NCBI GenBank assembly: GCA_051294375.1
Contig: CM119270.1
Span: 12,765,117 to 12,829,116, forward strand
DNA length: 64,000 bases
Direction: 5' to 3'
From: Paraspadella gotoi
Taxonomy: Eukaryota > Animalia > Chaetognatha
Below are positions 8,130-63,733 of this stretch, piece after piece. The translations under genes were made by a program, and so were the position numbers. Numbering within the stretch: the first letter of the stretch is position 1; each line of letters starts with the position of its first letter. The notes under the pieces are model-generated. The model ran no database searches and was not told the DNA's origin. It worked only from the letters and a program-made list of their open reading frames with translations.

Positions 8130-11100
8130 TTAAAAGGAGCGATGGCAAGAATAAAAATGTAATACAAAGCGAAAGAAAAGGAAGCGCCAAAATAAGAGGC
8201 AATCGTCTGAGCGCAGGAGCCGGGGAGGAGTCAAGCCTTCGAATTTAAAAGCCGAGGAGGCCGAAAGCACATAAAATAAAGTCCTTAATAGACCAAAAAC
8301 GCCGATATTAATTCGCCATTATTCCTTAATATACAATCAACTATAACAGCAATATACTATCGCTATCAATATACCCATCGTACAACCAAACACTCACAAA
8401 ATTAACTGATATAATGAAAAGCCAAATAATACTAAAAAAGGCTGAAATGAGTAAAAAAAAAAACTAAATACAAAATGACCAAGGATAAATAATCATAATA
8501 ATAATAAAATAAAAAAATTGCGAAAAGAATGAGCGGCCACCGGAGGCCGTCGTCAACTTTCTTGGCACCAGGATGCGCTGTAACGAAAACAATAGATGAC
8601 ACGCACATGGTCCTCACGGCGCCAGAGAAAATTCGCCTATACGAACCCAATCTACTATCTCTTCGACGGTTGCAGAGGCCGAGCTCATGTGGCGCGGCCT
8701 AGAGCGTTCTGCCTGTTCCGAAATCCTCGCCGCCGACTGCCATCGCGACCGCTTGCGCAACTTGGATGACTGCCGAAATGCCACCAGAACTGCGACAAAT
8801 AATTTGCAGGAACCATAAACGGCTTGAGTTTGGTCAACTATGCCTTTATTTTTTTTCCCTTGACACTCAAAATCCACATTATTCTATATTAAAACAAGTA
8901 ATTTTTTGCAAATTTCACAAACATTGCAAACAACAATCGCCTTTGTTAGCGAAAAATTAACAATTTGTCTTGACGTCTAGAAACAAAGGTCGTGAGCCAG
9001 CTTAGCCCCAAAAAAAATCTAAAAAATGCTGACAAAGCCGAAGAATCGATTTTTACCATTTTTTAAATTGTTTTTTTTTTTTCTTCTTTCTGACTTTTTT
9101 GCACAAAATTTCTTCTTTTTTCCTAATTTGAAACGATAAGCGCAGTGCTAAACTGTGTTCCCGGTCCCCTCTGCTAAACTAAATTTATTATTTATGCATT
9201 GCTTGCTGAACTTTTCTCAGGAGCTACAAAAGCCTGACAAAGTTACTCAAATAATTGAACATGGTCAGAATAAACTTTTATTAATTGTACGAGTGAAGGG
9301 ACGGAGCAGGAGCAAGGGACCAGACCAGAGCAGAGAATACTTCGCGCGATTTGCTGCCCCGCGATTAGCAATTCTCTTCTTATTGCTCATAAAATATCTT
9401 TTCTTATTCGCTATAATCTGTTTTTAGGCCGCAAAAACCATTCGCATCGCCCCTTTTCTGAGCCCAAGAAACACTGAGCTCCTTTACTTGCAGAGCAGAC
9501 AGTGGCGACGAGAGGCAGGAGAGAGCATGAGCACGAGGAGCAACGAGGAGCTCCAGACGCAGAAGAGAAGAGAAGCACGAGAGGGACAGCACGACAGGAG
9601 ACTGACGCTCTCTGAGTAAGGTGAGACGCAGACGACGGCGAGACGATTCGAGACGAGAGCACGAGCGCCCCTGGAACCGAGGCGGCGGTGAAGTCCGAAG
9701 AGAGCACGGACCTGCAGACTCCGAGCAGAGATGACGAGGAGACACGAGTCAGACCAGAGGAGCAGATGAGCGCAGAGCAGACCTATTGAAGGAGAGGTCG
9801 AGAACGAGAGAGAGAGAGAAGAGAACGATGGATCGGCGCAGAGCTGATAGGCAGACGAGCAGGCAGAGGAGAGACGAGAGTCGACGAGAGCCAGACGAGC
9901 GCAAGCCAGGCAGAGCCATTTGCAGTGATTGCCAAGAGACGAGAGGGAGAGCCGACGGCAGAGCCCGAGTCCGGCAGATTGATGAGGAGAGCCGAGGGCG
10001 AAGAGAGCCTCAGCAGAACCACGAGCGCAGCAGGATCGCGAGATCGAGGACAGCAGCAGCAGACGACGATGAGAGAGAGAAGCACGATAGAGGAGCATGC
10101 AGAGCAGCCAGAGAGACACGACTGACGGAGAGGGATCGCCACAGATCCGCTTGAGAGCTGCAGCGAGCGAGAGAGAGGACGAGAGCAGCGACCGAGAGAG
10201 GCACGAGGCGAAGGCAGAGCAGAGATCGAGAGAGGAGCCGGGAGAGAGAGAGGCGAGAGAGTGAGAGCAGGGAGCAGAGACGCCACCGCAGCGTACGCGC
10301 CCAAACGACACACCTAAGAGCGCAGCAGAAGAGATGAGAGAGATGCAGCAGAGCAGAGAGAGAGCGCGAGAGAGAGCGAGAGCATGAGCAGAGCTCAGGG
10401 CAGAAACCCGAGCTGCTATCCCCCTCATCCAGCCAGTCACAGAAGAAGAGAAGCAGACAGGAGAGAGAGGACGAGGAATGGCGAGGAGAGATGAGAGGCT
10501 AGAGAGAGAGAGGAGGATAGAGAGAGCACGAGAGAGATTGATGAAAGTCACGCGCTGAAAGCGGAGGCAAACGTTCAAATGTTTCCTGAGCCTCTTAGAA
10601 GTATTGAGCTTAGACAGCCGGAAACGTTGAGCCCTCCTTAGAATATTTTGATGAAAGCAAAACTTCTTTGACGAGTTTAGCCCAGCCTATTAAATCCTGC
10701 CCGACATAATCATAACTGCGACATTGAAGCAAAAAGCTAAAAAAAAAAAAAAAAAAAGAGAGCAGAGACGAGAGAGCCAGTCAAGAGAGAGCAGACGACG
10801 GAGACGAGAGCCAGAGACTGCAGAGAGACAGAGAGACGAGAGACCAGAGAATCCTCCTCTCCATAAGCCGCGTACAAGCCGCGCGCGGAAGGATGCGCGC
10901 AGCAATTCCAGTCTCAAGAGCTTTTTTAAATTGACTACGAATAACTTTTTCTTCCTTCGGCGGAGCCCGCGCCAGCGACCCAGTCTGTTGTCGTATTCAA
11001 GCTAAACCTTTTTCATGATTTATTATTTAGCCAATTAAAAAATCTTTGGCAGCATTTAATCAAAGAGCCTTCCCTATATATTTTAAAAGCTTATTTCCTG

Positions 11101-19737: not shown

Positions 19738-21217
19738 TCTCTCATCTCTCATCTCTGCTCTCATCTCATCTTCTTCTCTTCTGTCTCCATCTGTAAGTTT
19801 TTGCAACATAAAAAGAAGCAATTTCTTTGACAATTTTCGCGACAATGGTCGAACCCTCTCTGCCCGCGCTTTGTATCGCCGAATTCCGTTTTTCAAACAT
19901 CATCAATAGATCTTAGTATCAATACCGTCAGTCCTCTCTCTCTCCTACGTCATCTCCTCCTCTCATTCATTCTCTCTCTCTCGTCTCGTCAGCTCTCATC
20001 TCTCCGATCTCTCTCTCTCTCAAATATTAAGGATTTTTCTCTCATCCGTATTATCTTCGCCAGGCCGTTCGCGGCTGATTTCTTTATGCAAATGAGATCT
20101 AAGGTACGCATATAGAGAGAATCCGACCAGAGGTCTCGCTGGGGATAAAAGTGATTAAGAGAAGAAGAGTAAACATGTCTCTTCTCTTTCTTCTTCCACT
20201 TTCTATCCCGGTCTCTTTCTATGTTTCTCTCTATCCTTTTTCTCTTTCTCTTCCCTTTCTAAATTTATATCCATCTGTATACCTTTTAATCTGTTTCTAT
20301 CTATCTCTCTCTCTCTCTTTTTTCTTTCAATCTGTATCTCCAAAAACTAAAATCTCCTCCATCCCTTCCTTCCTTTCTTCTTTCCTTCCTTCCTTCTCTC
20401 CCTTCCCCGTTTTCTCCTCTTCCTTCATTAAACTCGTTCCCCTCCTTCCACTCCCATTCCATATCCATCCCTAAATAATCAATATACAGTACGAATCCTC
20501 CATAACGAGATTTTCTCTCCGGCCTCTAAATTCACCGGTTATATTTCCCTTTTTCTATTTTTTTCCCGCGTTTATCCCGTCAATGTTTGCTTCTCCTCCC
20601 GCTTTCGCCGTTAAGTGCGTCGCTCGCCGTAAATCGACCTTTTTACCAATTTGTTTGCGTAGCGATAATAAATGTTTTTTTTTCTTATTCCTTTGGGTTA
20701 GTCTTTTTTTTTTTAGGCCGTCCGAGTGAGTTTCGGCTAATTAAACATGAATTTTTGATTAAAAGCCTTTTTTTTAGATTATTAACCTTAATTAGCACAT
20801 TCTCTTTCAAAATAGTCTGCAAAAGAAGCTGCTCTTTTTTTCCGGTCCCATCCTCGGTCAGCTTCCAACGTCAAAAGGAAAAAAAAAACGATTCCTCTGA
20901 ATATAAATATAATTAATCAAAACAAACTTGTTGCTTAAAATCGTCATCTAGAGAACTCGCCACGCCCTCACCTTTCACCCTCAATTACCTCACCCCCCCT
21001 CCCTCATCGCCACACCTCTCTCTCTTCCTCATGCCTCCTCGTCGCGGTCCTTCCTCCCCTCCCCCTCGCCCTCCCCCGCTCTCCTCTCCTTCTTCTCCTC
21101 GAACTCACCTTATTTTCTCTCCCCTTTCCTCCCGCCCTTCGCCTCTCTACCACCACCACCGCCACCGCCACCACCGCCTCCTCCTCCTCTTCCTCCTCGG
21201 CCTCTTCGCCTCCGCAG

Positions 21218-21346
21218 CCGTGGACCCTGCCGCGTCGGCCTGCGTCGACGGAGAGTTCCGGTGCGGCGACGGCGGCTGCATCGACGAGACGCGGCGCTGC
21301 GACGCCTACGCCGACTGCGTGGACGGGACCGACGAGGTTGACTGTG
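21218..21346 (+). CDS. Exon encoding an LDL-receptor class A repeat (perlecan/trol-like gene)
   Basis: cgcag|...|gtgagt, 129 nt, phase 1-1. Peptide AVDPAASACVDGEFRCGDGGCIDETRRCDAYADCVDGTDEVDC has 6 Cys and the DCxDGxDE motif. Confidence 0.92.
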
Positions 21347-21577
21347 GTGAGTTTGTGGGCGAGAGTGGGGGAGATTGTGGGGAGAGAGGGGGGGAGATTG
21401 TGGGCGGCAAAAGCGAGGGAAATTTGGGAGGTGGTATTGAGATTCGAAAAAATAAAAAATATGACAACCAAACAAAATACTTTGCTAATTCGCTCCTTGT
21501 CTTTCTATATCAATTAAATTTTATTAAAACATCTCCAACTATTCGACTGTTTAGACTCAACTGTCCAACAATGTTTA

Positions 21578-21693
<116 letters not shown>

Positions 21694-23813
21694 CCTCCCA
21701 TTACAAACATCACTTTTTCACTCTTGTTTGTGACTTTATATTTATCGAACGATTCTCAGATTTTATTAATATTTATCGTCTGACTCGAAAAAGTTTTAAT
21801 TCAATTTTTTCGTCCAAAGAAAACAACGTCAAGTTTTTCCTTCATCGTCTGATCGAGTTACAGATTTTTCAAGCCTTTTTTTTACATTTTCCTTGTCATC
21901 TATTTTCGACACTTTTCCTTGACATTCTCTCTCTCTCTCTCTTTCTCTCNNNNNNNNNNNNNNNNNNNNNNNNNNNNNNNNNNNNNNNNNNNNNNNNNNN
22001 NNNNNNNNNNNNNNNNNNNNNNNNNNNNNNNNNNNNNNNNNNNNNNNNNNNNNNNNNNNNNNNNNNNNNNNNNNNNNNNNNNNNNNNNNNNNNNNNNNNN
22101 NNNNNNNNNNNNNNNNNNNNNNNNNNNNNNNNNNNNNNNNNNNNNNNNNNNNNNNNNNNNNNNNNNNNNNNNNNNNNNNNNNNNNNNNNNNNNNNNNNNN
22201 NNNNNNNNNNNNNNNNNNNNNNNNNNNNNNNNNNNNNNNNNNNNNNNNNNNNNNNNNNNNNNNNNNNNNNNNNNNNNNNNNNNNNNNNNNNNNNNNNNNN
22301 NNNNNNNNNNNNNNNNNNNNNNNNNNNNNNNNNNNNNNNNNNNNNNNNNNNNNNNNNNNNNNNNNNNNNNNNNNNNNNNNNNNNNNNNNNNNNNNNNNNN
22401 NNNNNNNNNNNNNNNNNNNNNGAGCGGGTAAGGGGACTGAACCCAACTTCACCGACAAAACTTGTGGAGCGTCTTTCCCTTTCCTTGAATTTTTTTTTCT
22501 TCTGAATTTTTTTAAGTCTTTTTTTTTCTCTTTTGTTAGTTTATTGTTTTTTTTTCTTTTGTTTGTGTATTTATTTTTTCCGTTTCCTTTTTCCGTTTTT
22601 CTTCTCTCGAGACTCGGGTCGAATTCAAAGGAGAGAAAACTTCGATCAATCATAAACAAACACATTTTTTCCCCTAAAAACTGAAAAAAAAATAAAATTT
22701 TGAAACAATTTTTTGGACAAAATTCTCTTCCGCTCTTCAACTTTCATTCTTTTTTTTCTTTCTTTTTTTGAGATCGAAAATAATAAGAAATTGAAAGATG
22801 AAGTAAAAATATAATAATTTTTCATACAGAGTCAATAAGTGAATTTAGTTCACGACAAAACTAACTATCAATTTCGTCTTTGATCTCACGAATTTCAAAC
22901 GTCATCTTTTTTCTTTCACATCAAGAATCAAATTTTTTTTTTTTGCTGATTCTGAGATTTTCTTAAGAAGAAAAACCAAAATGGTTTTTCTTTTCTTCCT
23001 AATTAAAATATCCCCCGAGATAATTAACAAAAAGAAAGCATTTTATTCCTTTAAATCGATGTTTTTCTCTCACACTCGTTAACAACCATTCGAGCGCCGC
23101 AACCCTTCACGAGAGCGCCTTCTCATAATCCATCACGCTCGTGCACACGAACGAGATTCGCGTGCAACGGCAATTTCCTGCGTGCGACGACGACCTTTTT
23201 CTCACGTTCTCGTCCGTGCGCACGCGATCGCGATCCGTCTCGCACTCTCGGGGCGACCTCGACCGTTATCACTCTCTCTCTCTCTCTCNNNNNNNNNNNN
23301 NNNNNNNNNNNNNNNNNNNNNNNNNNNNNNNNNNNNNNNNNNNNNNNNNNNNNNNNNNNNNNNNNNNNNNNNNNNNNNNNNNNNNNNNNNNNNNNNNNNN
23401 NNNNNNNNNNNNNNNNNNNNNNNNNNNNNNNNNNNNNNNNNNNNNNNNNNNNNNNNNNNNNNNNTTTTCCTCGAACCGTAATCAAAATCCATCGACCTCT
23501 CGAAAACCTGCCCCTCCCTCTCACCCTTTGAGATCCCAGTCATTTCCAAGTTCACCTGGAAACTCACCTCTGCCTCACCTCCGCTGCCCTCATCACCACT
23601 CGGTCCCTTTTCCTCACCAAATCCTCACGATGGCTTCCCTCTCGGCCGCCTCACCCAAACTATTCACGCACTCACTTGTCCAGAGCCCGAAATCTATCTC
23701 TCTCTCTCACCGCCGCCTCACGTCATCTCACGTCTCAAATCTTTATCCTCACTTTTCATTTTCGCCTAAGTTTCATACGGATTCCTTTAACTCTCGCTTA
23801 CATACGGACTTCT

Positions 23814-49557: not shown

Positions 49558-50390
49558 GTAAGTTGTTTCTTTTCATTGTTTTTTTTTTTTGTTTCGTTGT
49601 GTTTTTGTTTCGGTTTTTTTTTTTAAATTTTTTTAGAGGAGTATGTTTTTGATTTCGTTTCTCTTCGACTTTTTCGTCGTATTTACTCGACGATCGCTTG
49701 GAGAAAAATCGGGTTTTTCTAATCTATTTGTTTTTGTTATTTAATAATAGTTTGGTCTACTTCTGTAGGCTCTGATGAGGAAACTTTTTTGAGCCGTTAT
49801 TTTAAATATCTTCGTCAGATTTTATATTCGTGAAAAAAACGCCGTCAATTAGTTTTTTAAAATATTTTTTAAAAATGTAAACATTTCACATTTTAAACAC
49901 AAATAAACGATTTTGGCTATAATATACGGTTTTTCTATTTGTTAATTTCTTTCATCTCATCGTTTTTGTAAGGTGATAAATGTCAAGACAAGGAAAAAAA
50001 GATTGCGTTTTCGCAACGGAATTTAGTTTTTAATTTGCATACATGTTGTTCGAATAGTTTTTTATTCATTCGTCAGTGCAAAAAATCATTTTATGAAATT
50101 TACAAGTTGAGGCAATGTTTCTACTCGAAACATGCATAGCAAAATTAAAAACTAAGTTCGTTGCGAAAACCAATCTTTTCTCTTGTTTAAAGTTTTTCTA
50201 TATAAATGATATTTTGTTACGTTCTCCTGTTTTTAGCACGGATCTGCTTATGAGAGATTAACGGCTCTTAATTTACTGTGTCGGTCCGTCCGTCCGCCTC
50301 CCAAAATTGTTCGTAAGTCATTTAAATCAAGTCAGTACATCGAATTATGATAAATTATGCAAAAAAATGAAGTCCATCCACCCTCCGTCC

Positions 50391-50421
<31 letters not shown>

Positions 50422-50828
50422 CGTCCGTCTTTAGCTTTGAACGCCTATTACTTATGTTGTGTTGGGCGATTGACTGAAATTTTGTATGTGGTTAGGTAAG
50501 AGTGTGATTTGAGCTGGAAATCAAGTTCCGATGGAATCGTCCAGGAAATAAGTTAAAATGGAGAAAACAAAAAAAACTATTTCACTATTTGTTGGGTTGT
50601 AATTTTCAGAAAATGATATTGTATTGTAAATATAGTTTATAGGAAGATTTTAGCATTAAGCTGATAAAATTAAAAATCACAATTGTCGAAAATTACCTAA
50701 AAAAATACGCGTTGTCACATATCAATTAATATTAAATACAAAGTCGTCAGAAATATGCGTACACAATGCGCGTACACCGAATGCGCACCTCCCCTCGATA
50801 TCCGTGCGTGACCCCGACTCCTGTGCAG

Positions 50829-53164: not shown

Positions 53165-53560
53165 ATTTTGTTACGTCTCCTGTTTTTAGACGGATCTGCT
53201 TATGGCAGATTACGGCTCTATAATTCACTGTGTCGGTCCGTCCGTCCGCCTCCCCAATATTGTTCGTAAGTCATTTAAATCAAGTCAGTACATCGAATTA
53301 TGATAAATTATGCAAAAAAATTGAAGTCCGTCCACCCTTCTGTCTGTCTGTTTGTCTGTCTATCTGTTTGTCTGTCCGTCCATCTTAGCTTTGAACGCCT
53401 ATTACTTATGTTTGTGTTGGGCGATTGACTGGAAATTTTGTATGTGGTTAGGTAAGAGTGTGATTGAGCTGGAAATAAAGTTCCGATGGAATCGTCCAAG
53501 GAAATAAGTTAAAATGGAGAAAACAAAAAAATATATTTCACTATTTGGTTATGCTTTTTT
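53165..53560 (+). mobile_element. Possible DINE-1/HINE-like (Helentron-associated) element; copy at ~50210-50590
   Basis: Starts in a T-run (ttttgttacgtctcc), has internal (GTCC/GTCT)n microsatellites and a gaaattttgtatg core, as recalled for DINE-1-like elements. Confidence 0.35.
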
Positions 53561-54383
53561 TAGGTTAAATTTAATTATAATTTTAATTTTGTGATCGAGA
53601 TTGTGTTTGCGATTGAGAGGCGAGACAAAGTGGAAAACGATTTTGTCACGAATAAAAAAATTAATATTATTTAATTAATAAATTAATTAATTAACTATCT
53701 GATCAGCTGCTCATCGCTAATGATCGTGGGCAGATCCGGCATTGTTTGCTCATACTTGTTAAACACTAACGAACGTACGGAACAAGATGAGCGTAAATTG
53801 GCGTCTTGGCGCTTCGTCAAACGTGAAGCGTAAAGCGTCGGTGGCGCCATCCTCTTTCACCCTCACCCACAGTAGATTTTTTCACCCCACCCTCTACACC
53901 GAAAAAAAGCTTTACTTCCTAGTTAGCGATCGAGATTTCCAGTAGAATAAATAAAAAGTAACAAAAAGACGTAAAAAAAAAAAGTTAGAAAACTTTTTTT
54001 TTTTGGCGAAGTTGTGTTCGCTTGTTTTCATTTTTAGTTTTTAACTCGATTTTTTATTTTCATTTCCGAAATTTTCCCCCCTTACCCACCCGCGTTGCCC
54101 ATGATCCTTTGTGGGATATTTTTTACTTTTATTTTTTTTTTTTGGTTTGACGCGTTTTGAACCCTCACACCCCCCCCCGGGCTTTCATTTCTTTAATTCG
54201 TTTAAACGGCTCCTTAATTTCGTCATCGCCAACCGTAACCGGTGATCACACTTAACCGTTCACGACTGTCGACTCTTAACCATTTTGCGTCTCGATCCCT
54301 GGTCAAATCGACAAATCTTTTTCACAATAACAATCCCACGCTCACAATTCACTCGTTCACTGAAAATCGTTTCTTCTCCGAAG

Positions 54384-54749
54384 CAACTGGTTCGACGCCA
54401 ACCGGAAAACTAGAAGAAGAAACTGTTGAGCCGGGGAAAGATCCAGAACCGGAACCAGAGCCGGAACCAGAACCGGAACCAGAGCCGGAACCAGAACCAG
54501 AGCCGGAACCGGAACCGGAACCAGGATCTACTTCTACCGATCCTGGTTCTCCGCCGAACTCTGGGTCTTGGCCTGATTCAAGAACTCCGCCCGACTCGGG
54601 ATCCGGCCCGGATTCCGGTTCTTTGCCCGGACCGGACCCCGACTGCGTTTCCGGCGAATTCCGATGCGACGATGGCACCTGCATCGGCGAAGACAAACAG
54701 TGCGACTACGAAGCCAATTGTCCGGACGAGACGGACGAGAGAGATTGTC
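54384..54749 (+). CDS. Exon with (PE)n repeat, Ser-Gly-rich linker and LDLa repeat
   Basis: ccgaag|...|gtaagt, 366 nt, phase 1-1. Peptide ...PEPEPEPE...DSGSGPDSGSLPGPDPDCVSGEFRCDDGTCIGEDKQCDYEANCPDETDERDC. Confidence 0.92.
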
Positions 54750-55773
54750 GTAAGTCGAAAACGTCGCAGTCAAACAAATGGAATCTCAACGAGAGCTAAT
54801 TCATCGGTTTTCCCCAGTTTTAATATTTAAATATTTAAAGTTTCCAACTAAATGTTAAAGTAGAGAAGAGCGTCCTTTGTTAGTGAATCTTGAAAGAATC
54901 GTTAATAGAAGATGATCGAACCCAAATCATCCCAGTGTCTTTGACATAAACGCAAAACAAATCGTTTTCATGAGTACCACTTCTCTAGTAATTTTACCTG
55001 AGGAAAGTTCACACCAAATCCATAAGCTTTGTCAGAAATCATAGATAACTTTCACACCTGGCACTTAGCAATCTAGGGCCATCAGAAATCAACTCCAAAA
55101 CATTCTCATCTTCAACAATTTACGCCATTTAATTAAGTATTTAGTTAACAGTATAATATTACGCACGCGTCCTCCGCTCGCGCATTTACGCATGACCCCG
55201 AAACAGCGTCCCTCTCCAACGAATTTAATCTACGACAAATATTGTATAAATATATTTATATATACATAAATAAATTGTATAAATTGTAGATATTACTAAA
55301 TAGCCTGGTTTATTGAACCATAAAACTTTCATTTAAATTGTATTCCCCGATTAATTAGAAAAAAGTCACCAACTAACGAATACGCCCCCCCCAAAAAAAA
55401 AAATTTGCGGTGAATTTCTTTATCCTTTTTTTTAGCATCTTGTAGAGTTTGTGTTTTTGTTGGAGAACCGGAAGCATTGTGACGATTGACCTTCCATTGT
55501 ACCCGCAATCAAAATTGTGCCCTTCGTTCGCGATGTAACTCACCCGTCTCCCGATTTCCCGCCATTTAACTTACCTCATCGACGAATCCTCACCTTTCCT
55601 TTGTTTTTGAATTTTTCCCGCGACTCTCTCTCTCTCTATTTCCATTTCCCCTCCGGCCTCCGCCCATTCCCGCTCCCGAATTCCATCGCCACATATTTTG
55701 TCCCCACCGCCGTTCATTCCCCCCATTCGCCACCGCTTCACCCTTCACCCCGCGCCACCCCAACATCGCCCAG

Positions 55774-55960
55774 CCCCCCTCCGCCCCCTACCCTTCCCCC
55801 CATCATCGTTACCCTCCCGCCGCCGACCTTTCCGTCGGCGTGTCCGTCGGGCCAGTCGCCCTGCGGAGACGGGCGGTTTTCAGCGCCGGGCAGCGGTGCG
55901 ACGGGCGGCGACAGTGCGCCACCGGGATCGACGAACTCGGATGCCCGTCGATCTCTGCGG
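55774..55960 (+). CDS. Pro-rich linker + LDLa exon (one frameshift)
   Basis: PPPTLPPIIVTLPPPTFPSACPSGQSPCGDGR, then a frame change to FSAGQRCDGRRQCATGIDELGCPSISA. cccag acceptor; donor reads gcgagt. Confidence 0.75.
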
Positions 55961-56121
55961 GCGAGTTGTTTTTTTTTTTGGGGGGGGGGACGGGAGTGTT
56001 TTGGATGTGTTTTGTGTTTCGTGTCAATTGTTGCGTTGTTTCGAGAAGGGTTAATTCTATAGTTGAGAGGGAGGTGTAGTCGGGCATTGCCTAGGTTCAC
56101 CCTGCCTAGAATCATGACACT

Positions 56122-56375
56122 TTCAGTTGTGGCTCATTGAGTAAAGCCATCAGCTCATGACCACTAGGACCGGGTTCAATCCCAACCCGGTACCTACCCT
56201 GCGGGAAGCGTGAGGACGGCCGTAAGCCGCCTTGGGGCATGGCAAGCCCTCAAGCCTGGTTCCAAGCCCAGGGACCCGTTCCATGGCTGCTAGAGGGGGT
56301 TATAGAAGTTACGGACAGTCATCTTCAGCCCACGTAGCGCCTTATCCACAGAGGTTGGTTCAGAGAGAAAATAAA
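56122..56375 (+). mobile_element. tRNA-derived SINE
   Basis: Box A-like TGGCTCATTGAG at 56130 and box B GGGTTCAATCCC at 56172, with tRNA-like spacing. GC-rich body and A-rich end (gagaaaataaa). Boundaries approximate. Confidence 0.6.
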
Positions 56376-58045
56376 TTGTTTGCCCTCCGAATTTGCTCAG
56401 GATTTGCTTTCTGCGTTGCTGTTTTTCTAACAGATTATGAAGTTGATCCTACTAAATTACTAATAACTCGGAACCCAATTTCCGAAAGGCGGAGAAGCCA
56501 CGTAATTATTTTCGCTCCTCCCCTACTCTAAAATACGCTCGTGACATTTCTTCCCTGTCTTTATGAGGCCAGGATCGAGCTCTCTCGGCTCCTGTTTTTT
56601 GGCCCTGAGTTGAGAAAAAGAAAAGGAGGAATTAATTTTTATGAGTCGCTGATAGAAACGTGCCGTTTCGTTAATGCGTCGCGAGGCTCGTCTTTGGCGA
56701 AAGAACTTGTGGAAACAAGTTGTCTCCATTTTGGTTCCATGGGAGGTTATTTTTAGTTCTCTCGTATTTGTTTTGTTTTGGTTTTATTTGTGGTTTTTTT
56801 TTTCAGACTTGAACCCAAATTTGTTTTGTTATTTCTATTTTTTTACCCAATTGTATTTTCATTTACATTTCACTTTTTTTAAATTGTGTCACTTTGAGAT
56901 AAGAGAATTGTTTTTTTTTGTTTTCACAACGAAGTTTATCGAAAAGAAAAAGCAAATATATACCAATTGTGCCACTATATGGTACGTACTTATTTTCTTC
57001 ATCACCTGTCTCTCTGTTAAGCCAACACTCATCACTATCTCTACGCCAATGTTATTCTCACTGCGCCATCTTTTCTCCTCAAACTGCGCCATCTTAACCC
57101 CAGCCAATCCCTCGATGCGTCAAATCATCATCGAGTCATTGCGCTTCTCATTTCCTCCTTCTTCTTCTTCTCATTTCCTCCTTCTTCTTCTTCTCATTTC
57201 CTCCTTCTTTCCCTCGTTGATGATCTCGTCGTCTATCGTTAAAATTAAGGGGAAAAACAAAAATAATGCTCGATCCTGGCCTTGACGGATATGCCGACGA
57301 CGACGATGACAATGACGACGACGACGACGAAGACGGCGATGTCGACGACGACGACGACGGCAACAACAACAACAACAACTACTGAATAATGACGAAAACG
57401 ATAACGACGTTATAAACAAACAAACCATACGATTTACGGAGAATTACATCATCCAACAAAATTACAACACGACGACGACATGGCGAACGACGTGGACAAC
57501 AACAACGACTAACAACAACTACGACTAACAACGACAACGACTCCTCGATTCTAGGATCGATGGTCGCGCCCGGGCGTTATTTGAACTATGGTTCGTGGTT
57601 AAGGGCGAGGGGCGAGAATGGCTTTCTGCTTCGCTCGCCGATGGACGAGGAGAGAGCGAGAGGAGGCTTGCGGTTGGAGATCCTCAATGGTCTGACACGG
57701 CAGAACGACTCCCCCGCAGCGAATCTCCTTTGGGCAACGACGACGACGACTCTCGACATAAATGACGCGTAATGAAGGAAATAAAAACCTTGACGACTTT
57801 TATTTACTTGTTTTTATTCGCGTTTAATCAACGTTTTATCAAGACTCTATTACAGTTTTATCGGTCGCGGGATTTTTGCTTTTAACTCCATCAATTTCGA
57901 TCCAGGTCTATTTAATTTCTCTCTCTTGTCCCAAAGCCGGTCCCTCTTTTCTCACCTCCAAGGCGCAAATCGAGCTTTTCTCAATTCTCTCTTCACATCC
58001 GAGAAAATAAAAAACGCAAATTCGCCCGCCATAAACAAGTCGAGA

Positions 58046-58106
<61 letters not shown>

Positions 58107-58920
58107 AGAAGAGAGAGAGAGGGAGAGAGAGAGAAGAGAGGGCTAACATTAGAAGTTAGGAAAGTAGAGAAGAGAATAAAAAAGAGAAAAAAAGGCTGAT
58201 TTATTCTTTCGATTTATCATTGGCGAAAGGGGGCGCCACGCCCTTCTCGCCCTCGTTCTTGACGTCGTCGTTGTCATCGTTTCATTTGTTGTCGTCGCCA
58301 TCAGTGGCATTGTCATTGTCGTTTCTGTCATATATATTATGGTGGTTGTTGTTTTCGCCTGTAATGTTCCAAAGGTTTGTTGGGAGGAACCAATTTCAGC
58401 GTCTTTGTCATTCCTGTCATCATTAACAGCTTCGTCGTCGTCATCGTCGTCGTCAGCATCGTCTAGGGACTCTCTGCGAGGATTCATTGTTAGGCGCTGC
58501 ATTGTGAGAGACCATGGGCTCGGTCGTCGTTGTCGCCGTCGCCGTCGCCGCTGACTTGGCCAACAACAAGATCATTAGCGACACAACGTCTTTGAGATTT
58601 ATCACTTTGGGTGCAACGCGAACGAAACAACAAGCATAATTAACAACGACGACGACGACGACAAAAGACCGAGACGTAATCGATAGAAAACAACAACAAC
58701 AACAACAAAGACTTGCAACGTCAACGACTCAACCGTCAGCGAGCGTCTTTTGTTTTCGCCGTCAACTCAGACTTTTGCGTCTTAAAAATGGTAAGTTCAT
58801 TGCTTGACGAAGTCGATGACGACGACGATGTCGAAGACGAAAACGACGACGAAGTCGAAGACGAAAACGACGATATCTTCGACGACGGTGGAGGCGACGA
58901 CAACTCTGACACCGAAAACT

Positions 58921-58953
<33 letters not shown>

Positions 58954-59265
58954 TTGCCCGTTATTGCCGGATGTAAACAAGGGGGAAACCTGTTATTAGG
59001 CAGCGAAGACCTCCAGATGGGACCGTTGAAGAGTCGAGGATGACGATCACGACGGACGAAGATGAAGACGACGACGATGACGACAACGACAATTCCGGGT
59101 TTGTTATTTTAGAAAACGTTTAGTTATTTAAATAAACGCGAAAACAATAACAGCGTATCACACTTAAATTGTGGTTTTTACAAGCTACTACGTAGCTACT
59201 AGTTAAATACTATTTAATGATATTTGCTATATATCTAGTAGTTTTCTAAGTTCATAACTACATAA

Positions 59266-59271
59266 TTTATT
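59266..59271 (-). terminator. Candidate polyadenylation signal AATAAA of the LRR-KEN gene
   Basis: AATAAA on the - strand ~290 nt downstream of the stop codon. The context is AT-rich, so a chance match is possible. Confidence 0.35.
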
Positions 59272-59560
59272 ATCGAAACAAAAAAGGTTGAGTCCTTACT
59301 ACTGTGTTTTTAATTACATGATGAACGAAAAAGTATTGTTTGATGAATTCATTAAAGCGGGAAGCAGAACAATATGGCGACCAAAACAATTGTTTTGTCC
59401 ATTTAAAACTCTATGTAGATTAAAAAAATTAAAAAAAAAAACAACAAAAAAAACACTAAAGTACTCATAATAATAATCTAACAGTCAAACCGCCATGAAA
59501 TTATTAAAGCTAGCAAAGAAATTATTTACATTAGTTTCATTTGAGCCGTCTTCTTCCTTC

Positions 59561-62500
59561 TTATTCTTCTTTTCCTCCATTCTCCACTCCTTCTCTCCCC
59601 TCTTTCTCCTCCTCCTCCTCCCCTCCTCCTCCTCCTCCTCCTCCTCCTCCTCTTTCACGAAGAACTTCAACGCAGAAGGGGTATTTCGAAAAATCCCGCA
59701 ACTCGATGATTTTGTCGCGGAGCCAGACCCCTCGCCCATTGAGCGTGATCGTGAGGTCATTGGGTCGAACTCTTACTCCGTGTTCCCTTTTAAGGCGCTC
59801 AACGTATTTTCCCCTCAACCCTTCGCCCTTTAAGTTCTCGTCAATCTCAAGGAGAAATTGAAATCCTCCGTTGTCCGGGAATCGAGGGGAGCGGACGAGA
59901 CACTGCTTCCTCGAGACGCGAACCTCGGACCCTTCCAAAACTGGATGGTCTCTCCCTTTGCTGTCCTTCTTAAAGATGTCGTTTCCCTGCTCGGTCATCC
60001 CTAGTAGATTCGCTGGCCGAGTTCCTGGCCAGAGACGCTCTACATCTTCCCTTATTCTCTCTATCACGAGGCTCCCATCGATCTTGGTCATGGGTGCGCC
60101 GCTAAAGAATTCCAAGGTTTTCTCCATGTTAACGAAACAGCCTGTGATCGGATCAAAGTTAATAAACGAAACACGAACAGTATTGTTGAGCAGCAGTGGC
60201 TTGAGGCTTCCATCAACGAGTCCTTTTTCAGTCTCTTCGTTGACTAGTTTTAGGAATTCCTCAAAATAAAGGTTTTCCACTACTCGTGAACCATTTTGGA
60301 GTTTTTCATAAAAATATATTGAAAAAAGAAAAATGTAAGGAAATCTTTCGTAAAAATATTGGTACAATTGCTCAGTTGTAGGAGCATCCACTCCAAAAGT
60401 ATTTCTCATGGTTTCCCGTTCTTCTTTACTGTGCGTGTAAATGTTTCTGATGAACCGAATCAGGTCAGCAACTTTTGTTATTCGGTAACCTTTATCTCGT
60501 GACCCAAAGGTATACAATATTCGGTTGTCAAATAGTTTGTTCCATGACCCTTTCCCACCAATAAGCAAAGCGGATTTTTCCTCAATCTCATCCAGACTCT
60601 TGCTTCTTCTCAACCGTAAATCTATTACAATGCTGTTCAAACTGTTTAGCATTTCGAATTTATTTTCAACGGAGAGAAAAGCTGGAGTTTGAAGCGCTTC
60701 TTCGGCGTTCTGTCCTCTGAGGAGAGAACGACTGAGCGCTTTAAATTCCACAACATCACTGTCATTAATCATCACGATAATCTCCCTGACGCATTCAAGA
60801 TCGTATCTGCGGTACCGCTCGCCAGTAGGGCTTTCAGCAACAGCGGTTTCAGAGTCTTCAAAGTTTCCAATTTTTAGAGTCACGCTTTCAAAAGATCCAC
60901 AAAGAAACAAAGAGTCCGAGGACAATCCCAGATGGTAGACGGGTGGTGTCCTTTTGTGGATATATGCAACACCGGTAAGGACCTGCAGGACCAGTTGGCT
61001 TCCATTCAATGTTATCAGACCTGCCCTGGATTTTTCAAGACCCTCTTGAAGGTCGCACAATATTGATTCAATAAAATGAAATCCTTTGAATAAATGTTTG
61101 AAACTAAATTCAATTGAATAGTCACGTAATTGGAGAATGTTGTTTTGGCTCAACATTAGATGGCGCCTTGACTTTTTATTAAAATTAATCACCTTTTTCA
61201 AAGATCCAAGAACTTTTTTTAGATAAGTAGGATATTTTCTTTTCAATCTTAGTATGTTGAAAGAATGTATAACTTTTATTAGAATTAAAAGGCAAACTAA
61301 GAACGAAAAGGTACCTGGGATGTAATACTGTTCAATGTCACAAACTTGAACATACCCATTGAGTGAACGATTTGAAGAGCATTCAAAACCTTCCATTGAC
61401 TGATACTTAATTGCATTCGAGAATAAACGAGCCTGAGAACACTTGTTACAATCCCATTTGTTGTCCTTGGCAATAATTTTAGTATCTTTCATTTTCTGTA
61501 TCTCTAATGGCATTTCCATCAGTTTGTTGTGGGATAGATCGATCGTTTCTACTGAGGGTATCTTCAGAATAGATACTTGAGATGAAAATTGACTAATACT
61601 GTTCTCACTGAGATTCAACGACTTGACCAAAGAAAATCCAAAAATCCTAATATCCCTTAATCTTTCGATTACATTTTTGTTCAAGTCTATGGATATGAAT
61701 GGTTTGACGTTTTTCCGGCGTGATGATACATAAAACAATCTTATATTATTATCACTCGCTTCGATTTGTTGAAACAAATCCGGAGATTTTAGATTCAAGT
61801 CCAAATACAATGTATGCAAATTATTTCCATTCAGCTTAATATGAGCAATCCCGCTGTCAGTGAAAGCGTTAGGCGAAATGAATGTAATACGGTTCCTAGA
61901 AAGATCCAAAAGTTTAGCCGTAAATCCCGAAAATTGTCGGAATTTAATTCTACGAATTTTGTTTTCTGAGAGGTCAAACACGGCGTCGACGCCGTTATTA
62001 CTTAATCCCAGTACTCCTAGCGAGCCCTCCCAGTTATTCCAACGTGCTTGGAATCGAGAGACAATTATTGGAATAACGGATTCGATTTTTCCCTGCAAAG
62101 GCGCAGCGCAGCCCAGTATCGACAATGCTTCCAACTTACGATTGGATCCGAAATAATCGTCAAGCGTCAGAGCGTTCTTGTCAATCACCATGGAAACATT
62201 GTGACAGTAGAATTGTCTCTCTTCTTGAGCTTTACCTAAAAATTGTCGAGAACAGCAGCCAAAACTGATGTCCACGATGTAACTTTTTTTGAAAGATTGT
62301 TCTGGAATCCACCTCAGCGGATTTTGCACCATGGAAAAATGCAGAAGGTGCGTGAGACTATCCATGAGGGCGACATCGATTTGTGAGAAATAGTTATTAT
62401 CTAAGTTCAAGTAGGTTATCGAGTTGAGGGCAGGAAGGGATAAAGTTTTGAGAAAGTTGCCTTCTAAGTTCAAATTCTGCAGCAACGGCAAATTGCTAAA

Positions 62501-63733
62501 GAGAACCTTGTTCAAATTGGTGAGCAGGTTTAAACTTAAATTGACCATTTTAAGTTGTTTAAGGTCAGAGAAGGCATATGGATGGATTTTTTCTATCTTA
62601 TTTTCACTCAGATCCAAGGAATTCAAATAATTTAGACTTTTAAAAGTTGTTCTCTTAATCTGTCTGATGGCATTTTGATTTAATTGTAACCACCCTAATA
62701 CTCGTGTATCACTAAACGACCCATCTGAAATTTGGGCTATACCTAAGTTTTTCAGAGTAAGATGACGAAGCCTCCACAAATTGTCGAGCAGTTTTATATT
62801 GACAGTGACTAATGATTCTCCGGTATCGGTCCAGACTCCCGTTATATTTATCACTTCAACAAAGTTCATATTGTTGAAGAAATTTTCTCGCAAAGTTTGT
62901 ATTCCATGTATTTTTAAAGATTTAATAGTGTTATGTCTGCCGGGCAAAGAGTAAATATTTGTTTTTCCGTGAAAAACAAACTCAACGTATGTGAGGCTGA
63001 AAAAATATGGCAAGGACGGAAATTGGTCAACTTGGACGCCGAACTCAAGCGTCAACTCATTCACCCTCGGAGCCCAAAGAAGAAACTTCGTCGTCCTCAA
63101 CTCATTCCCAATCAGATTGATTTTCAACAACCGAGGCGTGCCTTGAAAAGCCTTGGGCGAAATAGTTCGAATCTGATTCCACCGCGCGTCGAAAAAGTAA
63201 AGCGTTGTCAGATTCGTGAATTGCGTCGTGATTTCCGTGAGGTTGTTGAAATTAATTCTGATCACGCTCAAAGCGGAATGTTTAAAGGCGTCGACGCCGA
63301 TATAGTTGATCGAATTGAGAAGAAAAGAAACCGTTGTGAGTTTAGGAAAATCGAGGAGAAAATCGTTTTCCAGCCTCTCGATCCCGAGATTGTAGAAACT
63401 TATTTCTGAATTAAAGTTGTCCGAGTTTTGATAAAAATCCTTGAGAAAAACTGTTTTATTTTCCCATACGACCCTCGCGTTTGACACGATTGCTCTCGTC
63501 AGGGTCGTGCATCCTTCTTGGGGCGACTGAACCTCCGTGTCTTGCCAGTGAGGATGGAAGACGGTAAAGTTTTTAACATTGAAAACGTCTCCATCGAACC
63601 ACGCGTCAAGTTTGCAGCGGGCTTGGACCCTTTCAAAGTTTAGACTCAGAATGACCGCTATGGAGAGAACGCCGATCATCTGGACAGATCGAGGCGCGGA
63701 ATTATTTGAAAAGGAAAAATATTTTTCTTGCAT
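59561..63733 (-). CDS. Single-pass LRR receptor with cytoplasmic pseudokinase + KEN (RNase L/IRE1-like) ribonuclease domain
   Basis: 1390-aa uninterrupted ORF. Hydrophobic signal-like segment from M19 (MIGVLSIAVILSLNFERVQA). Many LxxLxLxxN repeats (LNSLDLSENKIEKI, LKMVNLSLNLLTNL, LQNLNLEGNFLKTL). LRRCT NKWDCNKC...FECSSNRSLNG...C. TM ~aa 803-825. Kinase C-lobe-like QVLTGVAYIH / YHLGLSSDSLFL / LKIGNFE. KEN motifs ALQTPAFLSVENKF, GSWNK, YRITKVADLIRFIRNIYTH, YFYERFPY. Confidence 0.93.
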   Translation of the reverse strand: MQEKYFSFSNNSAPRSVQMIGVLSIAVILSLNFERVQARCKLDAWFDGDVFNVKNFTVFHPHWQDTEVQSPQEGCTTLTRAIVSNARVVWENKTVFLKDFYQNSDNFNSEISFYNLGIERLENDFLLDFPKLTTVSFLLNSINYIGVDAFKHSALSVIRINFNNLTEITTQFTNLTTLYFFDARWNQIRTISPKAFQGTPRLLKINLIGNELRTTKFLLWAPRVNELTLEFGVQVDQFPSLPYFFSLTYVEFVFHGKTNIYSLPGRHNTIKSLKIHGIQTLRENFFNNMNFVEVINITGVWTDTGESLVTVNIKLLDNLWRLRHLTLKNLGIAQISDGSFSDTRVLGWLQLNQNAIRQIKRTTFKSLNYLNSLDLSENKIEKIHPYAFSDLKQLKMVNLSLNLLTNLNKVLFSNLPLLQNLNLEGNFLKTLSLPALNSITYLNLDNNYFSQIDVALMDSLTHLLHFSMVQNPLRWIPEQSFKKSYIVDISFGCCSRQFLGKAQEERQFYCHNVSMVIDKNALTLDDYFGSNRKLEALSILGCAAPLQGKIESVIPIIVSRFQARWNNWEGSLGVLGLSNNGVDAVFDLSENKIRRIKFRQFSGFTAKLLDLSRNRITFISPNAFTDSGIAHIKLNGNNLHTLYLDLNLKSPDLFQQIEASDNNIRLFYVSSRRKNVKPFISIDLNKNVIERLRDIRIFGFSLVKSLNLSENSISQFSSQVSILKIPSVETIDLSHNKLMEMPLEIQKMKDTKIIAKDNKWDCNKCSQARLFSNAIKYQSMEGFECSSNRSLNGYVQVCDIEQYYIPGTFSFLVCLLILIKVIHSFNILRLKRKYPTYLKKVLGSLKKVINFNKKSRRHLMLSQNNILQLRDYSIEFSFKHLFKGFHFIESILCDLQEGLEKSRAGLITLNGSQLVLQVLTGVAYIHKRTPPVYHLGLSSDSLFLCGSFESVTLKIGNFEDSETAVAESPTGERYRRYDLECVREIIVMINDSDVVEFKALSRSLLRGQNAEEALQTPAFLSVENKFEMLNSLNSIVIDLRLRRSKSLDEIEEKSALLIGGKGSWNKLFDNRILYTFGSRDKGYRITKVADLIRFIRNIYTHSKEERETMRNTFGVDAPTTEQLYQYFYERFPYIFLFSIYFYEKLQNGSRVVENLYFEEFLKLVNEETEKGLVDGSLKPLLLNNTVRVSFINFDPITGCFVNMEKTLEFFSGAPMTKIDGSLVIERIREDVERLWPGTRPANLLGMTEQGNDIFKKDSKGRDHPVLEGSEVRVSRKQCLVRSPRFPDNGGFQFLLEIDENLKGEGLRGKYVERLKREHGVRVRPNDLTITLNGRGVWLRDKIIELRDFSKYPFCVEVLRERGGGGGGGGGGEEEEEKEGREGVENGGKEE
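60295..60700 (-). other. KEN (kinase-extension nuclease) domain
   Basis: DLIRFIRNIYTH aligns with RNase L DLLKFIRNLGEH and IRE1 DLLRAMRNKKHH. YFYERFPYIF aligns with YFQKTFPDLV / YFTSRFPHLL. LQTPAFLSVENKF aligns with LGHPFFWTWESRY. Confidence 0.88.
60690..61170 (-). other. Degenerate protein-kinase-like (pseudokinase) domain
   Basis: NNILQLRDY (subdomain IV-like), FIESILCDLQE (hinge-like), LVLQVLTGVAYIH (alphaE). HRD is replaced by HLG (H934) and DFG by NFE (N957). A short loop is followed by YDLECVREIIVMI, resembling RNase L DLEDLGRLVLYVV. Confidence 0.75.
61330..63620 (-). other. Toll-like leucine-rich repeat ectodomain with juxtamembrane LRRCT cysteine cap
   Basis: Extracellular-type LRRs (xLxxLxLxxNxIxxIxxxxF), many N-x-S/T sequons, and an LRRCT at ~61335-61465. 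Confidence 0.9.

Follow-up and report, generated by a model that had tools for sequence, protein, structure and literature searches.

A predicted single-pass membrane protein of the chaetognath Paraspadella gotoi joins leucine-rich repeats, a dead kinase fold, an intact KEN nuclease motif and two ubiquitin-like domains

We analysed a 64,000-nucleotide stretch of the genome of the chaetognath Paraspadella gotoi (GCA_051294375.1, contig CM119270.1, positions 12,765,117 to 12,829,116 of the forward strand), referred to here as the window, whose draft-assembly sequence has 40% GC content and contains 15 runs of N. Its minus strand carries a long open reading frame (ORF) encoding a protein of 1390 amino acids (aa), whose features are located in Table 1. 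A first-pass annotation, made from the letters of the DNA, had singled out the stretch 60295-60700, which corresponds to aa 1012–1147 of this ORF, as a kinase-extension nuclease (KEN) domain with catalytic residues that appeared intact beside a decayed kinase, and had proposed that the nuclease is the output under selection. The frame is free of stops over 4173 bases within DNA of 40% GC, and upstream of its ATG a single further sense codon is followed by an in-frame stop. Two plus-strand ORFs (59871-60269 and 60689-60877) were rejected as genes because they are shadow frames of the long ORF on the opposite strand. No tandem paralogue of the ORF was found by tblastn within the 64-kb window.

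From its N terminus, the protein comprises a probable signal peptide, an ectodomain of leucine-rich repeats (LRRs) closed by a Cys-rich cap, a transmembrane (TM) helix, a pseudokinase, the KEN domain, two ubiquitin-like (UBL) domains in tandem and a microsatellite-encoded tail. The N-terminal hydropathy peak, at aa 13–16 plus a 19-residue window, is the second highest of the protein. Over aa 1–803 only LRR families were found by Pfam, and the ectodomain carries 10 N-glycosylation sequons (N-x-S/T), an internal Cys cluster at aa ~495–515 and a C-terminal Cys-rich cap (NKWDCNKC...). Its best relatives in the PDB, as found by phmmer, were IGFALS (E = 8e-27), TLR13 (1e-23) and LGR4/5 (~1e-23). The TM helix is directly followed by a basic stretch, RLKRKYP, which by the positive-inside reading would place the C-terminal part in the cytosol. 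The most economical topology would be that of a type I single-pass membrane protein with a cytosolic C-terminal part.

Table 1. Features of the 1390-aa ORF, with coordinates in the window
Feature	Position	Strand	Residues	Basis or remark
Whole ORF	59561..63733	minus	1390 aa + stop	uninterrupted
Probable signal peptide	63620..63679	minus	aa 19-38	hydrophobic run MIGVLSIAVILSL then VQA; from hydropathy
LRR ectodomain	61325..63619	minus		Pfam LRR_8 E 1.1e-38, 7 stretches
Single TM helix	61244..61324	minus	aa ~804-830	top Kyte-Doolittle peak, 2.17 at aa 810
Pseudokinase	60674..61225	minus	aa 837-1020	alignment with IRE1-type kinases, model, Foldseek
KEN domain	60218..60673	minus	aa 1021-1172	all-helical; Pfam, phmmer, model, Foldseek
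W1064 of GSWNK	60542..60544	minus	W1064	aligned to Trp of yeast Ire1 'GDW'
Active-site segment	60431..60487	minus	Y1083, D1090, R1093, R1096, N1097, H1101	
Y1083 codon	60485-60487	minus	Y1083	six residues lie between it and D1090
D1090-L-I-R1093-F-I-R1096-N1097-I-Y-T-H1101	60431-60466	minus	D1090 to H1101	ORF translation
First UBL (beta-grasp) domain	59939..60211	minus	aa ~1175-1265	tail model, Foldseek
Second UBL domain	59648..59938	minus	aa ~1266-1362	ends ...VEVLRERGG; tail model, Foldseek
Disordered Gly/Glu tail	59564..59647	minus	last 27 residues of the cytosolic model	(GGA)n/(GAG)n microsatellite; predicted local distance difference test (pLDDT) <50

To our knowledge, KEN nucleases are known in depth from two contexts only: IRE1, a stress sensor of the endoplasmic reticulum (ER), and RNase L, a vertebrate interferon effector switched on by 2',5'-linked oligoadenylate (2-5A). 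The KEN identity of aa 1021–1172 was confirmed. The Pfam family Ribonuc_2-5A (PF06479) matched aa 1039–1149 with an E-value of 6.2e-15 and a score of 55.9 bits (curated cut-off 23.3), and covered positions 16–120 of the 127 in the profile. A phmmer search of all PDB chains with aa 1000–1160 returned yeast Ire1 (2rio, E = 1.1e-6), RNase L (4o1o, 0.014) and human IRE1 (3p23, 0.044). All residues listed by the first-pass annotation were present in the ORF translation as numbered, namely Y1083, six further residues and D1090, then R1096, N1097 and H1101, together with W1064 in GSWNK. The Tyr, Asp, Arg, Asn and His stand opposite Y..D..RN...H in yeast Ire1 (2rio) and human IRE1 (3p23), and the last four stand opposite the same residues in RNase L (4o1o). 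Together with the PF06479 match, these alignments bore out the claim that the catalytic residues are intact, the resemblance being much too strong for chance.

According to the text of PMC9472280, yeast Y1043, R1056, N1057 and H1061 correspond to human Y892, R905, N906 and H910, with H1061 and Y1043 acting as general base and general acid and R1056 and N1057 holding the scissile phosphate. Y1083, R1096, N1097 and H1101 align one-to-one with this IRE1 catalytic tetrad. The sole difference between 3sdj and 3fbv in the motif stretch is an Asn replacing the second His, which makes H1101 the equivalent of yeast H1061. In PMC8104961, yeast H1061 is matched to H672 of RNase L, and yeast R1039, the RNA-binding Arg, to R651; the same passages give V659–H672 as the extent of the RNase L α4 helix and state that KEN sites are active only in back-to-back dimers. 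When mapped by hand in the yeast Ire1 numbering of that text, E988, K992, R1039 and Y1059 correspond to E1027, S1031, R1079 and Y1099 of the protein described here.

An AlphaFold2 model of aa 830–1390, built on a 44-row alignment, reached a mean pLDDT of 91.7 and a predicted template modelling score of 0.86. In this model, aa ~1022–1174 consist of helices only. The helix at aa 1088–1100 (KEN α4) carries R1093, R1096 and N1097, with H1101 at its end, as in the α4 helices of IRE1 and RNase L. Foldseek returned at least 500 PDB matches for the cytosolic model, and among the matches listed all were IRE1 kinase-RNase chains; the best (6xdf_B, E = 3.2e-13) aligned over ~385 columns of kinase and KEN, with target-normalised template modelling scores of 0.54–0.64. 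An AlphaFold model had been suggested as the check on the annotated motif, and the fold and the position of R1096, N1097 and H1101 along the predicted helix agreed with what had been proposed. A homodimer prediction with two copies of aa 830–1175, run without controls, scored 0.00 and has no bearing either way. Two queries of the ESM Atlas gave, for one, only leads below 0.9 (Pan3 and other kinases) and, for the other, no usable match.

A full HMMER search of 1.84 billion representatives, queried with aa 830–1390, returned 55 relatives at E ≤ 1e-3, of which 15 reached E ≤ 1e-10 and one E ≤ 1e-30. The best relative (P0002, 1393 aa) was 33% identical, and both it and P0003 (1457 aa) showed the same Pfam order of LRR, pseudokinase and KEN, had a hydrophobic stretch between the LRRs and the kinase, and aligned through the tail. 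Identities to P0002 and P0003 were 38% and 32% for the KEN domain, 28% and 30% for the pseudokinase, and 28% and 23% for the ectodomain. The weak matches were ordinary IRE1 proteins with weak PQQ-like matches, an active kinase and a KEN domain, plus one ankyrin-kinase-KEN protein; most IRE1-type matches had weak hits to PQQ_2 or Beta-prop_ACSF4 that lay below Pfam cut-offs. A word-index homologue search found none for aa 830–1390 and none for the family alignment, and with P0009 as query it returned six close relatives.

The maximum-likelihood tree of 35 KEN segments, arbitrarily rooted, placed 18 family rows in one clade (support 98/98) that excludes the IRE1-type rows and has a stem length of 0.95 changes per site. 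Judged by its sequence, the 1390-aa protein thus belongs to a small distinct KEN family. The family alignment comprised 19 rows with a mean column identity of 14%, and 240 of its 561 reference columns were filled in at least 14 rows. Only four positions, R1093, R1096, N1097 and H1101, were invariant in all 19 rows, and W1064 was conserved in each of the 17 rows that cover it. The active site is the most tightly constrained part of the protein, and the kinase fold is conserved too.

Other front ends were seen on related proteins. In P0062 (1599 aa), LRRs and a Roc GTPase are joined to the same KEN-plus-tail cassette. P0005 (955 aa) and P0007 (780 aa) carry the KEN-plus-UBL cassette with a helical segment before the KEN domain that, from a reading of the sequences, is apparently repeated. 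In P0017 (534 aa), the cassette follows a soluble kinase whose HRD and DFG motifs are intact.

The pseudokinase has lost the residues of catalysis. In the alignment with IRE1-type kinases, HRD is replaced by HLG, DFG by NFE and the Asn of the catalytic loop by Ser, and in the AlphaFold2 model the N-lobe is reduced to three strands and helix C right after the membrane, with no β1–β2 or Gly-rich loop. The Pkinase family gave no Pfam match to the 1390-aa protein at E ≤ 1, and a WNK-kinase catalytic loop matched part of the pseudokinase. The fold was modelled with a pLDDT above 88 in every ten-residue block past the first 20 model residues, and the column entropy across the family was 1.92 for the pseudokinase, 1.97 for the KEN domain and 2.46 for the first UBL domain, the least conserved of the cytosolic domains. 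Given this model confidence and an entropy equal to that of the KEN domain, the kinase fold is a dead but conserved scaffold, as in RNase L. The first-pass description of a decayed kinase was therefore right as to catalysis and wrong as to the fold, which is not decaying. Since HRD, DFG and a complete Pkinase match are retained in P0017, the loss of kinase catalysis in the family is secondary.

When modelled alone, the tail (aa 1175–1365) reached a pLDDT of 90.2 and formed two β-grasp units. Foldseek of this model gave 137 matches at E ≤ 1e-3, including linear di-ubiquitin (3b08, E = 6.6e-7), several ISG15 entries (~1e-6) and the tandem UBL of chicken OASL (7sbi, 9e-6), at a sequence identity of 10–15% to the OASL/ISG15-type structures. 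Conservation within the family extends to the UBL pair. The microsatellite at 59564-59660 (minus strand) is translated as a run of Gly and then Glu and, with the preceding codons, yields 'VLRERGG' straight after the last strand of the second UBL domain; 59595-59661 was flagged as a repeat at which contigs of the sequencing runs break. An ending resembling LRLRGG, the C-terminal motif with which modifiers of the ISG15 type are conjugated, was absent from all homologues aligned through the second UBL domain. The likeness of 'VLRERGG' to the ubiquitin/ISG15 end is therefore taken as a probable coincidence.

Nine public sequencing runs of one organism, from three studies, contain the locus. Their contigs showed ~10 variant sites in the ORF (four synonymous and six non-synonymous), too few for a selection test; none was a stop, a frameshift or a change at a catalytic residue. 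A minor contig of run X1 at 60224-60279 (minus strand, aa 1152–1170), with a depth of 23 of ~100, differed at four sites in 56 bases (V1152E, K1170N and two synonymous) and may represent a second allele or a close paralogue. Over the LRR region at 61229-61945 (minus strand), several DNA contigs matched short pieces only and then continued into unlike sequence, which suggests related LRR genes elsewhere in the genome. None of the nine runs is on record as RNA. Run X9, guessed to be RNA, covered 29 of 30 bins of a 16.9-kb stretch at low depth, and since this coverage included intergenic DNA, X9 behaves like DNA.

Elsewhere in the window, the plus-strand open frames 20917-21780 and 54239-54796 each encode a single LDL-receptor class A domain (E = 2e-8 and 8e-7, respectively) and probably belong, as exons, to one or two further animal genes. 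A 400-codon open frame at 9487-10686 (minus strand) had no Pfam match at E ≤ 0.01. Near the long ORF, four stretches (49920-50483, 53304-53867, 55560-56687 and 58380-59507) are high-copy repeats or transposon fragments, with summed X1 contig depths of thousands to hundreds of thousands, against ~100 over the gene, and with many joints and loose ends.

The protein is closest in layout to IRE1 (yeast Ire1p and human ERN1/IRE1alpha; 2rio, 3fbv, 3p23 and 6xdf), which likewise passes the membrane once with a luminal or outer sensor and a cytosolic kinase fold followed by KEN, shares the catalytic Y/R/N/H and the Trp, and provides the best matches in both sequence and fold. It differs in its LRR sensor, where the IRE1-type matches have a PQQ-like luminal domain; in its dead kinase, which lacks the Gly-rich loop, whereas an active Ser/Thr kinase is a criterion for IRE1; in its two additional UBL domains; in its separate clade of the KEN tree; and in interface residues that are of neither Ire1 type. 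With RNase L (4o1o and 4oav) it shares a pseudokinase serving as a non-catalytic scaffold, a KEN domain with the nearly identical motif D-L-L-x-F-I-R-N-x-x-x-H and, conceivably, an immune-type effector logic. RNase L is soluble and its pseudokinase retains nucleotide binding, whereas the present protein is predicted to be membrane-anchored and, with its N-lobe so reduced, to bind no nucleotide; no ankyrin family was matched by Pfam at E ≤ 1, and hence there is no 2-5A sensor. It would work like IRE1 or RNase L yet is a member of neither, being a member of the KEN (PF06479) superfamily.

Toll-like receptors and other type I LRR receptors (TLR13 4z0c, LGR4/5 and IGFALS) resemble the protein in their LRR ectodomain with a Cys-rich C-terminal cap and sequons, in the one TM helix and in the intronless ORF. 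Unlike Toll-like receptors, it has no TIR domain by Pfam, and the pseudokinase, KEN and UBL domains together explain its entire cytosolic part. OASL and ISG15 (7sbi, 7s6p and 5tla) have two consecutive β-grasp domains as well, and OASL, described in the text of PMC10400998 as carrying two C-terminal UBLs, places them at the C-terminal end of an RNA-defence-type protein. Here the UBLs sit on the nuclease arm and not on the synthetase arm, and the ubiquitin-like 'LRERGG' end is derived from the microsatellite and absent in homologues. The UBL tail has its parallel in the UBLs acquired by vertebrate OASL, which may be a case of convergence. PMC10400998 confines RNase L proper to jawed vertebrates and sorts the KEN homologues of eukaryotes at large into ten clades; RNase homologues bearing LRRs, a TM segment or UBLs are not mentioned in its main text. 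A literature search turned up no description of an LRR-TM-pseudokinase-KEN-UBL architecture; the figure and supplement of PMC10400998 show KEN architectures and may include this family.

By analogy with IRE1 and RNase L, the protein with its LRR ectodomain, TM helix, dead kinase, KEN domain and tandem UBLs is most likely a receptor-gated endoribonuclease, to which we assign a probability of roughly 0.6. Two cytosolic pseudokinase-KEN modules would be drawn together back to back once the LRR ectodomains bind a ligand or cluster. Pairing of the receptor is proposed as the switch because the KEN domains of IRE1 and RNase L are active only as such dimers, and it would complete the two KEN sites, in which H1101 would serve as general base and Y1083 as general acid, and R1096 and N1097 would hold the scissile phosphate. 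Cytosolic RNA would then be cut, leaving 2',3'-cyclic phosphate ends. The pseudokinase would act solely as a dimerisation scaffold, requiring neither autophosphorylation as in IRE1 nor nucleotide binding as in RNase L; neither is expected of a fold that has no Gly-rich loop, no HRD Asp and no DFG Asp. The tandem UBLs may be a regulatory or partner-recruiting module, which is the least supported step and a guess.

Several observations weigh against a receptor-gated endoribonuclease, or at least against its details. The conservation that the first-pass annotation saw in the motif holds for R1096, N1097 and H1101 but does not extend to its other members: the position of Y1083 is Tyr in 14 of 18 family rows (His in three, Gln in one), and that of D1090 is Asp in 13 of 19 (Ser in four, Glu in two). 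The position of the RNA-binding Arg, R1079, is Arg in just one of 17 rows. At yeast positions 988, 992 and 1059, the dimer-interface triplet that sets Ire1 specificity reads E/S/Y here, a combination that differs from the S. cerevisiae pattern as well as from the S. pombe pattern in passages of PMC8104961 and suits neither the stringent nor the promiscuous type of Ire1; within the family the 992 position is Glu in 11 of 15 rows and the 1059 position mostly hydrophobic. With such a non-canonical triplet, the canonical back-to-back interface is not to be assumed and the substrate range is not predictable. At the domain level, the pseudokinase is as conserved as the KEN domain, so that the nuclease is not singled out as the sole selected part; the first-pass proposal of a nuclease output beside a non-catalytic kinase nevertheless fits the data, and all columns invariant in the 19 rows belong to the active-site segment. 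Finally, the similarity of the ectodomain is spread about equally over many LRR proteins, and 'TLR-like' is a loose label.

The departures at Y1083, at D1090 and at the interface would fit a KEN domain kept as a non-catalytic module for RNA binding or dimerisation, with the signal passing through UBLs that recruit ubiquitin-binding adaptors, as is thought for OASL. The conservation of the UBL pair and its confident model would agree with such a role, although the first UBL domain is the least conserved cytosolic domain (entropy 2.46). That none of the 19 rows departs from the phosphate-holding R1096 and N1097 or from the general base H1101, when mean column identity is 14%, is hard to explain without catalysis, and we regard a purely non-catalytic KEN domain as quite improbable. 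An ORF that is an unexpressed or recently dead gene copy would leave the intact motif uninformative about present function, and no run containing the locus is on record as RNA, the guessed RNA run covering intergenic DNA too. Against this stand the 4173-base stop-free frame at 40% GC, cytosolic domains with a mean pLDDT above 90, and ~10 variant sites across samples of three studies with neither stop nor frameshift, which make a dead copy very improbable.

The topology of sensor, one TM helix and cytosolic kinase fold with KEN is that of IRE1, and yeast Ire1 is the closest solved sequence, so that the LRRs may instead face the lumen of the ER or of an endosome as a stress or luminal sensor, with the KEN domain processing one specific RNA (an XBP1/HAC1-like stem-loop) without broad decay. 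At yeast position 1059, which is Y1099 here, passages of PMC8104961 tie a Tyr to stringent cleavage, yet only one of the 19 family rows has Tyr there. The family clade is moreover separate from the IRE1-type rows with their PQQ-like sensor and active kinase, and the LRR ectodomain, Cys-capped and rich in glycosylation sites, is characteristic of receptors in the secretory pathway without discriminating between compartments. We consider such an IRE1-like sensor unlikely.

Taken as a receptor-gated endoribonuclease, the protein could have a role in innate immunity, which is a guess by analogy from the TLR-like ectodomain, the RNase L-like output, the OASL/ISG15-like tail and the swapping of sensors among family members. 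A further and doubtful proposal, offered tentatively, is that it founds a class of animal pattern-recognition receptors that work without a signalling cascade: a TLR-like LRR receptor would directly switch on an RNase L-type nuclease, an ISG15/OASL-like module would pass on or limit the signal, and the cassette would be plugged into other sensors, as in the LRR-Roc protein P0062. If true, this would be an RNase L-like defence arm that lies beyond jawed vertebrates and is independent of 2-5A. Receptor gating of the nuclease, the main reading, would in itself be a third way of controlling KEN, directly through the receptor with neither kinase chemistry nor a second messenger, and would extend RNase L-like effector logic to animals without the OAS-RNase L pathway. 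It is directly testable, as the cytosolic module is compact and confidently folded and offers obvious catalytic-dead controls (H1101 and R1096/N1097).

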